Below, in pieces: positions 11,201-15,309 of a DNA stretch of 15,309 nucleotides (the stretch's first letter is position 1; the number at the start of each line of letters is the position of its first letter). This stretch comes from a virus (taxonomy: Duplodnaviria; Heunggongvirae; Uroviricota; Caudoviricetes): the IMG/VR virus record IMGVR_UViG_2540341028_000008, one strand, 5' to 3'. Made by a program: the position numbers.

Positions 11201-14200
11201 ACCACAAATGGCGCAGGATAAATTAAGACTTCATGAAAACCATCCAGCCATTCCAGTCCTAACTCCAGAACGGGTAGGCAAAATAGAAGTGCTATCCGGC
11301 AGCTTCTTAATGAATCCAGTTCAAAGCCCTGTAAAGGAACAAGCCGCTTTTGCTGTAAAAAACGTTCGGCAAGAGTGACTAATTTGCTTTGTTCCTGTTC
11401 CGTCAGACACGTTAAAAGGGGGATCGATAGTGCTTCCTGCCAGGGAAGGGCAGTTTGATGTGCTGATTCTTGTACTTTCCAGGGCCACTTAATCATCGTT
11501 TTGCTCGCAAACTCGTCACTTGAACAAAATTGCACGGACAGGGACTGTTAAAATGCCAAATTTCCTGGCATCATGGCAACCATCTGAACGGAGAGATGCC
11601 GGAGCGGCTGAACGGACCGGTCTCGAAAACCGGAGTGGGGGCAACTCCACCGGGGGTTCAAATCCCCCTCTCTCCGCCAAAATTCAATCACTTATACATC
11701 ATTAAGTCAGTGACAAAAATCACACGTGGAATTACTTGGAATATTTTCAGGTAACGGGACATCAAGTGTCGGTGAAACTTTAACCTTCCTGTCATAGATT
11801 AGCACTTGCCCCTCGGTTTTGTGACCAGAGAAAAGTTGCTTATCCCGACTGCTTCCTTCATAGTCTGAAATTCCTTTCGCCTTCAGATCATGAAAGGTGA
11901 AGTCGGTTAAAATACCTGAAATTTTGCCTGCGCGATTTCTTGCTTCTACCCACATTTCGTTAAAGCCTTTGTACATATATCGGTTGCCGTATTGATTGCT
12001 GATTACATAGGCGGATGTTGGTAACTGTTTTGCTTTTTCGATCGCCGCCTGTAATCGTGGACTCCATGCTTTTATCTGTTTTTTTCCTGTTTTCCCTTGC
12101 TGGATAAAGATCCCGTCGTTTCCAATCTGCTCCCATTTCAGCGATAACACATCGGAAACCCTCGCTGCACACAGATAGGCAATTTCCATTGCGATAAAAA
12201 CAGGAAGAGGTGCAACGCTTAATACTGCCTGGTATTCTTTGTCGGTTACATATCGTTCGCGGTTTTTGGCCTTGAATTTACTTACACCTGCACATGGGTT
12301 AGCCTTCACGTACCCTCGCTCATACCCCCAACTGTAAACGCGGGACTTCATGGTTGGCTTGCGTTTTACTCTGTTCCCCTCTCTTGTCCATGTATCGACG
12401 GATGTGTTCTGGTTTTATGGAATCTGCCGGCACCTTACCGAATACGGCAAGCAACTTTTTTGATGTTGCAGATAATCTTTTTGTGTTCTTGGACTGAGGT
12501 CACTGTAATAGGCGCTGGCGAGGAATTTTTCCCACAAGCGACCGAATGTCATTGCACGATCGCGATTATTTACAGTTTCCTCATACTTTTTCCATAAAGC
12601 AGCTAAACCATCCTTGATGGCGGTTAGTGTTACAGATTCGCTGGATGTTGGTTTCCATACATAACTATATTTATTTGGGTATACATTTGGAGGTAATTTT
12701 TCGTGCTCAGGATTTTTCCTTCGTCTTCCCATCAGATCGCACCAAAATTCGGCTCTACCTCGCGTGGTGGTAAAGTTTTATTGCAGGTAATAGATCCCGG
12801 CTGACAATCGGTTTGCCACTACGATTGGTATAGAACGGAAGCTCGTTTTCCATTAACCATTTTCGCTGGTGGCTTGCATATTTGCAGCCCGTTAATATTA
12901 GCAATTCATCTTCGGTTAAAAATAAGCTGCTCATAGCTATATCTCATAACCGCCGCTAACTATATACGGTTAGCGGCAATTAGGGTTGAACATTAAAAAT
13001 CAGCCTGACTCGGGATCAGTTTTTGCCAGATAGCTGAAACGTATTTTGCCTGGTAACGAGCGTCATCAAGTGCATTATGGCGCTCACCTTCGAATGGAAT
13101 AGCCGTTCTGGCATCGAAGTCTATGGCTTTCCCCAGCTCAACGATTGTGCGTACATCGCGATCGTTGTAGTAACGCCACGGGCAGGGGATCCCCTGCCGT
13201 TCGTATGAACGGCGCAAAATCGTGTTGTCGAAGTTGGCTCCATTTCCCCAGACCTGAACAAAAAATTCACCGGAGTTTTCGTCGATAAATTCCCGCAATT
13301 GTAACAGTGCATCATCTAACGGGATTTCATCGGTCATAATGGCAGATTGCGCTTCGCGTGATTGCTTAAGCCACCATTTAATGGTGTCCCGATCAATGAC
13401 TCCGCCAGCAGTTTCCAGATCGATAGTCTTACTAAATTCGGGTCCCATATCTCCGGTTTGCGGATCGAAAAATATTGCACCTATTGAGATGATCGGGGCA
13501 TCAGGATTTTTTCCCATGGTTTCAAGGTCGATCATTAGATGGTCACACGTCCTGCTGGTGGATGTGATTTCGTGATGACCATTCACCGTAATTAAGGGAT
13601 CTGCCGTCTCGCCAGTTTTACTATCGCTGGCGTGGTCCTGAGCGCTGCCAGCATTCTCCTTGTGTGGATGTTCAGCGCCTTCCATTTCCTCCGGATCATT
13701 TTCCTGAACTTCAACCTGATTCTCTTCATCGAATGTTTTCTGGTATGTTGCGTCGTCCATCACCGCGCCACAATCAGGGTAGTTGCCGCCACCGCTCTGA
13801 CCGCAGGCGGTGCAGACTTTTTCCGGTTCCTGTTGCGCTACTGGTTCGGATTGTTTCGTTTCTGGCTCGTTTTGTAACGCATTTTGAACCGCCCCGGGTT
13901 TCCTGGAGAGTGTTTTATCTGTGAACTCAGGCTGCCAGATCATCGTTTCCGATGGAAGCATAATAAGCTTTTTCTGCTTCTGCCGGAGGGATGTGGCCCA
14001 GCCTTTCCAGCAATCGTCGATTATTATACCAGTCCACCCACGTGAGTGTGGCCAGTTCCACTTCTGCACGGTTTTTCCAGCTCTTACGGTGTATTACCTC
14101 CGCTTTGTAAAGACCATTGATGCTCTCCGCCATCGCGTTGTCATACGAGTCGCCTGTACTTCCTGTTGATGCCAGTAATCCGGCTTCCTTAAGCCGCTGT

Positions 14201-15309
14201 GTGTAGGCCAGCGATACATACTGAGAACCTTTATCACTGTGATGGACCGTGCCGGACGGTCGACGGGCCCATAACGCCTGCTCCAGAGCATCCAGCACGA
14301 ATGTCGTTTCCATGGACGATGAGACCCGCCACCCCACGATGTATCCGGCAAACACATCAATAATGAACGCCACATAGACGAAGCCCTGCCATGTGCTGAC
14401 GTAAGTAAAATCAGCCACCCACAGCTGGTCAGGTCGTTCTGCCACGAACTGACGGTTTACGCGGTCGCCTGCGGCAACGGCTTTCCGGCTGATGGTCGTA
14501 CGGACCTTTTTACCCCGGAGAACACCGGCAAGTCCCATAACCGCCATGAGACGTGCCACAGTGCATCTGGCCACTCTGATACCTTCCCGTAACAACTGAC
14601 GCCAGACTTTACGCACACCGTATACCTGATGATTCCCATCGTATACGCGCAGTATCTCTTTCTTCAGCCAGTCATCGCGCTGCGCACGGGCACTGCGTTT
14701 ATCAGGATGATGTCGCTGTTGCTGACAGTGGTAATACGTTGACGGGGCAATATGTAGTTCACTGCATACCGGTCCGACCCCGTACAGCTTACGCAGCTTA
14801 TCCAGCAGTGGCATCACTTTTTCCAGAGGCGGTCGAACTCCGCCTTCGCAAAATAAGCGGAAGCCTGGCGAAGGATATCGTTACTGCGGCGCAGTTCACG
14901 ATTTTCACGTTCCAGCTCTTTCAGACGCTGACGTTCAGCGGTGGTGAGCCCGCCATCACCGCCTCCGGTATCCCGCTCATGCTGGCGTACCCAGACACGC
15001 AGAGTCTCCGGTGTACAGCCAATCTTTGGGGCAATGGAACAAATTGCCGCCCACTGTGAGTCATATTCGCCCTGACTTTCCAGAACCATACGAATCGCCC
15101 TCTGACGGACTTCGGGGGAAAAACGAGTATTTTTAGTCATCCTGTTTACCTCTTTCTCAGGGAGTTTAGTCTCCAGGATTCCCGGGGCGGTTCAGGCGCG
15201 ACATCCGACGCCATTCATGGCCATATCAATGATTTTCTGGTGCGTACCGGGCTGAGAGGCGGTGTAAGTGAACTGTAGTTGCCATGTTTTACGGCAATGA
15301 GAGCAGAGA

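Follow-up and report, generated by a model that had tools for sequence, protein, structure and literature searches.

An IS629 copy without a target-site duplication joins a prophage exonuclease remnant to the interior of IS1 in Shigella flexneri serotype 6

The window analyzed here, 15309 bp long, is the entire draft contig AERO01000071.1 of Shigella flexneri CDC 796-83 (serotype 6), and the prophage in it is decayed and integrated at tRNA-Ser (serU). The second of its two IS629 copies lies between the tail of a prophage exonuclease gene and the interior of an IS1 element; a prior sequence-only reading had taken it for a nested-IS rearrangement breakpoint, and so it is. With a probability of roughly 0.55, we conclude that this copy marks an IS629-associated deletion of ~6.5 kb in the serU prophage. 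That conclusion draws on the orientation of the IS1 piece, which fits one particular IS1 copy of related genomes (‘IS1s’); on a layout conserved among those genomes; on a comparable join in a sister strain; on the absence from the record of predicted fusion proteins; and on other deletions in the same lineage.

Copy 2 (13885–15194, minus strand) is complete, at 1310 bp, and is identical, as the reverse complement, at 100% of positions to copy 1 (3112–4421, plus strand). Repeat arms were computed as 1311 nt, one extra flanking base matching by chance. The length is that of the family (~1.3 kb), and the terminal inverted repeats are 25 nt long, 92% complementary, and begin TGAACCGCCCCGGG. The right inverted repeat, at the orfB end (TGAACCGCCCCGGGTTTCC...; 13885–13909), abuts the exonuclease remnant, and its partner, the left inverted repeat at the orfA end (TGAACCGCCCCGGGAATCC...; 15170–15194), abuts IS1 nt 259. 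Between them lie orfA (14814–15140, minus; helix-turn-helix, Pfam HTH_Tnp_1, E 2e-12) and orfB (13927–14817, minus; DDE transposase core, Pfam rve, HTH_21, rve_3 and rve_2). These overlap, as expected of IS629, and an ALIL frameshift pseudoknot of the IS3 family spans the overlap (14743–14859, minus; Rfam RF01497, 116 bits against a gathering score of 50), providing the programmed –1 frameshift signal. Similar E. coli sequences are annotated as IS3 family or IS1203-like.

Copy 1 is a simple insertion in yeeJ and serves as the reference for the termini: yeeJ continues without a gap from one flank to the other, and its 4-bp target duplication, CTTC, stands at 3108–3111 and 4422–4425. Copy 2, read directly from the sequence, is different. 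On its left, ...GTAACGCATTT is followed by TGAACC; on its right, GGTTCA is followed by GGCGCGAC; and neither ATTT and GGCG nor TTT and GGC agree, so that the 3–4-bp duplication is missing, as the sequence-only reading had stated. When compared with uninterrupted targets, homology ends exactly at 13884 and restarts exactly at 15195, and moving the IS629 termini therefore yields no matching repeat. The missing duplication marks copy 2 as a rearranged copy without removing it from the IS629 family. IS629 makes 3–4-bp duplications, and of 47 O157 insertion sites only 21 had matching ones (PMC3271280). Inversion between the two copies of the window is ruled out by the CTTC repeats and yeeJ sequence that copy 1 retains on both sides.

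To the left of copy 2 lies the 3′ remnant of a RecE-type prophage exonuclease gene (12993–13884, minus), cut on its 5′ side by the element. As anticipated, the 5′ end is lacking: the remnant comprises the last 892 nt (296 codons and the stop) of a gene that is 2442 nt long (813 aa) where intact, in E. coli FDAARGOS_944, and it is collinear with that gene. Full-length homologues of 813 aa combine PF06630 (the Exonuc_VIII N-terminal region) with PF16473; the window encodes the C-terminal 296 aa only, and retains the Pfam Rv2179c-like 3′–5′ exonuclease domain (E 2e-68). In Shigella relatives the gene is already shortened, having lost its first ~95 codons through a second IS1 copy, ‘IS1a’, which leaves 718 codons; the remnant is collinear with this 718-aa version up to window position 13884. 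What the window holds is thus a gene remnant. Look-ups with open reading frames of the remnant (358, 322, 316 and 230 aa) matched only AERO01000071.1 itself, an independent assembly described below, and short contigs. A yeeJ reading frame was absent from the record searched, and mtfA gave ordinary E. coli matches only.

To the right lies IS1 nt 145–259 (15195–15309, minus), a 100% match to IS1 of related Shigella loci, containing the Pfam InsA C-terminal domain. The reference IS1 is 768 bp and encodes InsA (zinc ribbon and HTH) and InsB, of which the window covers these nucleotides only. The piece translates as LCSHCRK...NGVGCRA; insA ends ...GVGCRA with the TGA of the IS629 terminus as its stop, leaving a stump of 68 codons. 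That this is the middle of insA, interrupted after GVGCRA, was foreseen correctly, but the other end was misread as a cut: since the window is the whole contig, the piece stops at 15309 through the end of the assembly, inside IS1, and not through truncation of IS1. The other terminus of the contig lies beside an IS1. That the contig is a circle, or a collapsed tandem duplication, closed via this left-end IS1 is possible but not supported; the nt 245 allele agreed with one locus (L020) and disagreed with three (L018, L019 and L021). Shigella genomes are rich in IS1 copies, and nt 145–259 contain no SNP that distinguishes IS1s, IS1a or other copies. Searches with the InsA product must be read with care: a look-up of a 38-aa piece led to a record of no relevance whose IS1 is interrupted by runs of N, and sets of 464 and 985 contigs with a 68-aa InsA ending GVGCRA, considered as evidence of an IS629 hot spot in IS1, were not accepted as such because N-masked records yield the same product.

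Comparison with related genomes, which had been proposed as a check, supplies the ancestral arrangement. In five complete genomes (S. flexneri 6 strain 64-5500, S. boydii Sb227 and three others) the order, in the sense of the exonuclease gene, is a 140-aa gene, IS1s, a 3.9-kb early region, IS1a, the already 5′-shortened exonuclease gene of 718 codons, DUF4224, and a frameshifted integrase. The early region encodes Ead/Ea22, DUF4406, DUF977, a 356-aa protein, YdaT, and cro-like and cI-like proteins. The exact 140-aa protein was not among the matches when that gene was used in a homology search. IS1s lies in the sense orientation with its own 9-bp duplication; IS1a is antisense, has no duplication, and adjoins the exonuclease gene. 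IS1a stands in this antisense position in every related Shigella genome examined, including two contigs of the same lineage, L006 and L007, in which copy 1 is present as well. The IS1 piece of the window points the other way, which rules out IS1a in its usual place as the source and, on the same ground, a small deletion between the exonuclease gene and its neighboring IS1. IS1s, ~4.7 kb further upstream than IS1a, has the orientation of the window piece.

The complete genome of 64-5500, of the same serotype, is collinear with window 2994–13884 at 99.97%, copy 1 included, and places the two flanks of copy 2 precisely. Numbered along its locus (L042), window position 15195 corresponds to 4762 (IS1s nt 259) and window position 13884 to 11266. 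The two sites are separate, collinear, matched in orientation, and 6503 bp apart, as expected for the endpoints of an IS-bounded deletion. IS629 stands in place of those 6503 bp (CP026811.1, 1361782–1368284), which comprise IS1s from nt 260 onward, the 3.9-kb early region, all of IS1a, and the 5′ part of the exonuclease gene. The history first suggested for this junction, transposition into IS1 followed by deletion or recombination, fares well in its main part, the best explanation being that the remainder of IS1 and the 5′ region of the exonuclease gene were lost; it needs amending in that the IS1 concerned is probably IS1s rather than the adjacent IS1a, and the implied loss amounts to 6503 bp.

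Such a deletion would have begun with IS629 inserting into one of the two partners, IS1s or the exonuclease gene. Adjacent deletion mediated by an IS end might then have created the junction with the other partner; so might homologous recombination, if a further IS629 in direct orientation lay a few kb off. In both cases a single intact IS629 would remain, with flanks from different target sites and hence no duplication. The event would be degenerative: the immunity and early region of the prophage would be lost, and a C-terminal exonuclease reading frame and the 68-codon insA stump left behind.

A similar join is found in another serotype 6 strain, whose genome is finished. In FDAARGOS_714 (S. 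flexneri 6, CP055124.1; L018), IS1 up to nt 645 is followed by IS629 and an exonuclease remnant, with no duplication and ~6 kb missing. Its three partners, their order, and the relative orientation of IS1 and exonuclease gene are those of the window. It differs in that IS1 is interrupted at nt 645 rather than 259, the exonuclease remnant is 97 nt longer, and IS629 has the opposite orientation. Since the nucleotides differ on both sides and IS629 is reversed, the two joins are separate events. The IS1 piece in FDAARGOS_714 carries G390, the IS1s allele, whereas IS1a of 64-5500 carries A390. Copy 1 of FDAARGOS_714 lacks its duplication, and 2.6 kb of yeeJ beside it are gone, so this lineage does make such deletions.

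Several observations weigh against the deletion. The contig stops 115 nt into IS1, before any sequence left of IS1 nt 145, and the source of the piece could be any IS1 copy. The path from IS629 into IS1 crosses a 1.3-kb repeat in a draft assembly and is represented by a single contig. Finally, two nearly identical independent deletions, in CDC 796-83 and FDAARGOS_714, with the IS in opposite orientations, look like coincidence.

The two junctions differ in how widely they occur. The exonuclease/IS629 junction is also present in an independent short-read assembly (L017; GCA_014284525.1), identical to the window at 100% over 4345–13961. Among the DNA sequences compared, the IS629/IS1 junction was found in AERO01000071.1 only. 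Neither junction had a contiguous match among 5426 complete E. coli genomes, and the exact junction patterns had no relevant match in viral, species-representative genome or metagenome collections, the single metagenome match (L041) being an unrelated contig whose terminal 31 nt belong to IS1. Matches of 9–12 nt to ‘exonuclease’ beside other IS629 copies (L018 and L019) proved to be chance extension into another IS3-family transposase gene.

The alternative that survives best, which we consider possible but doubtful, is that two IS629 copies recombined and no DNA was lost. Copy 2 would then be one of two hybrids, and the 5′ part of the exonuclease gene would survive beside the other. Flanks would have been exchanged between a simple insertion in the exonuclease gene and another IS629, lying either in IS1a (a local inversion of ~1.6 kb) or in a distant IS1 (a large inversion or translocation). 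In keeping with the local version, the window piece is 100% identical to IS1a of 64-5500 and of another relative (L004) but inverted with respect to the exonuclease gene; against it, the G390 allele speaks against IS1a as the source in FDAARGOS_714. The lineage does undergo inversion between inverted IS629 copies, as the segment between two of them shows when L019 is compared with FDAARGOS_714, and IS629 occupies several other sites in the exonuclease gene of sister strains (L008, L010, and L018/L011). Two insertions and a recombination are required, however, and recombination preserves flank-to-end junctions. The reciprocal junctions would read GCGGAACAAAACAGCCCAAA(T) running into TGAACCGCCCCGGGAATCC (exonuclease 5′ part into the IS629 left end) and GGAAACCCGGGGCGGTTCA running into (G)CCAGTGCACGC (IS629 right end into IS1 nt 260 onward). 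Fusion proteins predicted for the first, allowing duplications of 0–5 bp, were absent from a collection of 15 billion proteins, a weak negative because the look-up needs the exact protein and annotation may call such fragments pseudogenes without a protein. The 5′ sequence behind these predictions is identical in same-lineage contigs, and a control product, predicted for the L008 type of IS629 insertion (a simple one at another site of the gene, with a 4-bp duplication), was present (P0031).

The missing fusion product also counts against an assembly mis-join, in which the exonuclease gene and an IS1 would each contain an ordinary IS629 insertion with its own duplication, and the wrong flanks would have been threaded through the collapsed 1.3-kb repeat; we regard this as unlikely. 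In its favor, the window is a draft contig, its two IS629 copies agree at every base, and it ends in one IS1 and beside another. Independent support, from L017, exists for the exonuclease side only, and the piece at the IS1-side junction is itself repeat sequence. Set against this, copy 1 is correctly joined in the same contig, and the finished FDAARGOS_714 genome has a real IS1–IS629–exonuclease join of like kind. Least credible, and very improbable in our estimation, is insertion of IS629, without duplication, at the precise point where a deletion had already joined IS1 to the exonuclease gene, which would likewise leave unmatched flanks but has nothing specific in its favor, would need one exact phosphodiester bond to be struck by chance, goes against the normal 3–4-bp duplication (PMC3271280; copy 1; P0031), and finds no bare junction of IS1 nt 259 with the exonuclease gene, lacking IS629, among the relatives examined.

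Beyond the single event, the two S. flexneri 6 joins of IS1s to the exonuclease gene, together with a yeeJ flank that is joined to opposite IS629 ends in two strains, raise the thought of recurrent inversion-type intramolecular events caused by IS629 in this lineage, giving inverted IS pairs that collapse by deletion. We think this distinctly unlikely; if true, the prophage interval would be a recurrent and mechanistically informative hot spot rather than the site of unrelated accidents. As it stands, the junction points to a probable strain-specific loss of the prophage early region and can serve as a lineage marker within S. flexneri serotype 6, and it illustrates that a missing duplication in a draft contig is interpretable only with the ancestral layout in hand and proof that repeats were threaded correctly. 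Its importance beyond bookkeeping is little.

The closest parallels are the small structural polymorphisms associated with IS629 in E. coli O157:H7. Deletions adjoining IS629 are documented (PMC9943667), and the O157:H7 literature places 62% of its IS629 copies in prophages or prophage-like elements and describes IS-adjacent deletions of from a few nucleotides to >40 kb (Ooka 2009 and Kusumoto 2011, as cited in PMC9943667; PMC3271280). The likeness extends to the element family and isoform group, the preference for prophages, the many copies without a 3–4-bp duplication, and the adjacent deletions. The present case differs from the O157:H7 cases in its host, S. flexneri serotype 6, in the retention of the IS at the junction, and in having one endpoint inside another IS. 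The scar is of an ordinary kind in IS-rich Shigella genomes, and no new element, gene or mechanism is indicated. IS-driven decay in Shigella is familiar for its pseudogenized prophages, nested IS elements, IS-bounded deletions and inversions, and differences between strains at one locus. From this the scar in the window does not differ in kind; it is a further instance, in the remnant of a serU prophage.

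The window corresponds to all of contig AERO01000071.1 (15309 bp) in draft assembly GCA_000193935.2, where proteins encoded in the window lie at the same coordinates. AERO00000000, the accession to which this draft contig belongs, is Shigella flexneri CDC 796-83 (PMC5429569). Our references were two finished serotype 6 genomes, FDAARGOS_714 (CP055124.1; locus L018) and 64-5500 (CP026811.1; loci L042 and L052), whose strain names are taken from PMC9455713. The window opens with phage head and tail genes (1-2459, minus strand), joined directly, without an IS, to a yeeJ gene missing its last 1545 nt. 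At this join (2458-2460) yeeJ is fused into the interior of a portal-like gene with a 2-6 nt overlap; the junction is common to S. flexneri 6 genomes (L018-L027, L052) and looks like an old illegitimate-recombination deletion. IS629 copy 1 (3112-4421) lies inside yeeJ between 4-bp duplications, CTTC. The remainder of yeeJ (4422 to about 10209) includes 609-nt tandem Ig-like domain repeats (5876-7174; copies 83-90% identical), as expected for this adhesin gene. Next come tRNA-Asn (10526-10598), mtfA (10699-11496), tRNA-Ser (11590-11676) and a frameshifted phage integrase (11707-12732), split into ORFs of 105 and 214 aa here and split also in many Shigella relatives. In this contig only, the DUF4224 gene (12755-12934) has upstream stop codons (59 aa versus 67 aa; region 12755-12958), which may be sequencing error in the draft. 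It is followed by the remnant of a RecE-type exonuclease gene (12993-13884), IS629 copy 2 (13885-15194, minus strand) and nt 145-259 of an IS1 (15195-15309).

Copy 2 is full-length, does not differ from copy 1, and carries orfA, orfB and the frameshift pseudoknot, as expected. Read directly, its flanks are ...GCATTT on the left and GGCGCG... on the right. Alignment to uninterrupted targets ends exactly at 13884 and restarts exactly at 15195, and no shift of the IS629 termini yields a repeat. The sequence-only reading thus held in claiming a copy without target duplication, set between an exonuclease gene lacking its 5' end (the last 892 of 2442 nt survive) and a segment of IS1. It also described the IS1 side as an insA fragment. 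On translation, the insA frame does close at IS629, ...GVGCRA being followed by a TGA that the IS629 terminus supplies; the other end of the piece, at 15309, is merely the end of the contig.

A single layout is common to five complete genomes from this Shigella cluster (64-5500, S. boydii Sb227 (CP000036.1), CP026731.1, CP049285.1 and an NCTC assembly). Following the sense of the exonuclease gene, it comprises a 140-aa gene; a sense IS1, ‘IS1s’, whose 9-bp duplication is TCAGGCGGC; an early region of 3.9 kb (Ead/Ea22, DUF4406, DUF977, 356-aa, YdaT, cro-like and cI-like genes); an antisense IS1, ‘IS1a’, without duplication; an exonuclease gene with 718 codons left; and then DUF4224, integrase, mtfA and yeeJ. 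L006 and L007, short-read contigs in which IS629 copy 1 is present as in the window, likewise end in antisense IS1a beside the 718-codon gene. Together, these arrangements show that about 95 exonuclease codons were already lost to IS1a when IS629 came.

Window position 13884 aligns with L042 11266, and 15195 with L042 4762, which is nt 259 of IS1s in matching orientation; the 115-nt piece matches IS1a too, in inverted orientation only. Relative to 64-5500, a single IS629 stands in place of 6503 bp (L042 4763-11265) made up of the remainder of IS1s, the early region, IS1a and the 5' part of the exonuclease gene. Our best reading, to which we give a probability of roughly 55%, is an IS629-bounded deletion of 6.5 kb between the upstream IS1 and the exonuclease gene. 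The history proposed earlier, in which IS629 activity removed the rest of an IS1 and the exonuclease 5' region, is in part supported, with the deletion reaching to the upstream IS1.

Two rivals are kept because the contig stops 115 nt into IS1, the piece holds no SNP that tells IS1s from other IS1 copies, and the draft path through a 1.3-kb repeat is provisional. In the first, copy 2 would have recombined, or undergone inversion, with a further IS629 copy. Homologous recombination leaves contacts between flanks and IS ends unchanged, so a surviving exonuclease 5' part should still touch the left end of IS629. Fusion proteins predicted for that contact with duplications of 0 to 5 bp, from 5' sequence identical in same-lineage contigs, were absent from the protein collection. 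A control prediction, for another simple IS629 insertion in the gene (4-bp duplication, as in L008), was found (P0031, on a 1181-nt contig), so the look-up can work. The absent fusions moderately favor true DNA loss, and carry only that weight because an exact match is needed and pipelines may call such fragments pseudogenes without a protein. The second rival is an assembly mis-join through the IS629 repeat. Neither junction is contiguous in 5426 complete E. coli genomes. The exonuclease/IS629 junction does recur in a separate short-read assembly (L017), which is 100% identical to window 4345-13961 and has the same IS end; the IS629/IS1 junction is absent from all other fetched DNA and three scanned collections. 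A protein look-up found a 68-aa InsA of this IS1 isoform, ending at the same residue, on 464 contigs; we do not count it as confirmation, since IS1 records with runs of N give the same product. CP078578.1, a public complete-genome record, has such runs inside an IS1 (L029 9977-10168), and the truncated InsA products look like IS-interrupted genes in protein databases. Finally, the window's left end (position 1) stops right where an IS1 starts in relatives (L018 13073), and its right end (15309) is at IS1 nt 145; since the two IS1s share orientation, a circle or tandem duplication closed via IS1 nt 1-144 is formally possible.

Sister strains record other IS629 events at this locus. In FDAARGOS_714 (L018 1-1840), a sense IS1 reaching nt 645 is joined through IS629, oriented oppositely to the window's and without duplication, to an exonuclease remnant that exceeds the window's by 97 nt. 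Joins of this kind are thus real in the lineage, although this one is a separate event. At nt 390 the IS1 part of this join reads G, the IS1s allele, where IS1a of 64-5500 has A, which implicates IS1s as the partner. The join is a second near-identical 6-kb loss within the serotype. At copy 1 of the same genome, 2.6 kb of adjoining yeeJ and the CTTC duplication are gone (L018 8649-8652 versus window 4422-7066), a clear case of plain IS-adjacent deletion.

Elsewhere in the exonuclease gene, IS629 or other breaks leave remnants of 638, 406, 101 and 47 aa (L008, L010, L020 and L009), spanning window equivalents 12993 to about 15150. L008 represents simple insertion, flanked by a 4-bp duplication; the L009 cut is its contig end. 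The yeeJ flank ...GTTCTGCAAAC (L011 6992 and L018 8651, both window 7067) abuts the left IS629 end in one strain and the right in the other, and so reflects not homologous recombination but two insertions at one site or inversion-type transposition. Between L018 and L019 (8652-16689), a segment of about 5.4 kb, holding the yeeJ 3' piece, phage genes, IS1 and yeeX, has been inverted and is bounded by a pair of IS629 copies in inverted orientation.

IS629 insertion in E. coli O157 creates duplications of 3-4 bp, and of 47 insertion sites just 21 showed matching ones; prophage or prophage-like DNA holds 62% of its copies there (PMC3271280). IS629-adjacent deletions range from a few nucleotides to more than 40 kb and are promoted by the IS-excision enhancer (PMC9943667). 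In a genome rich in IS elements, copy 2 is an ordinary outcome of their activity, and a fresh instance of a known phenomenon.
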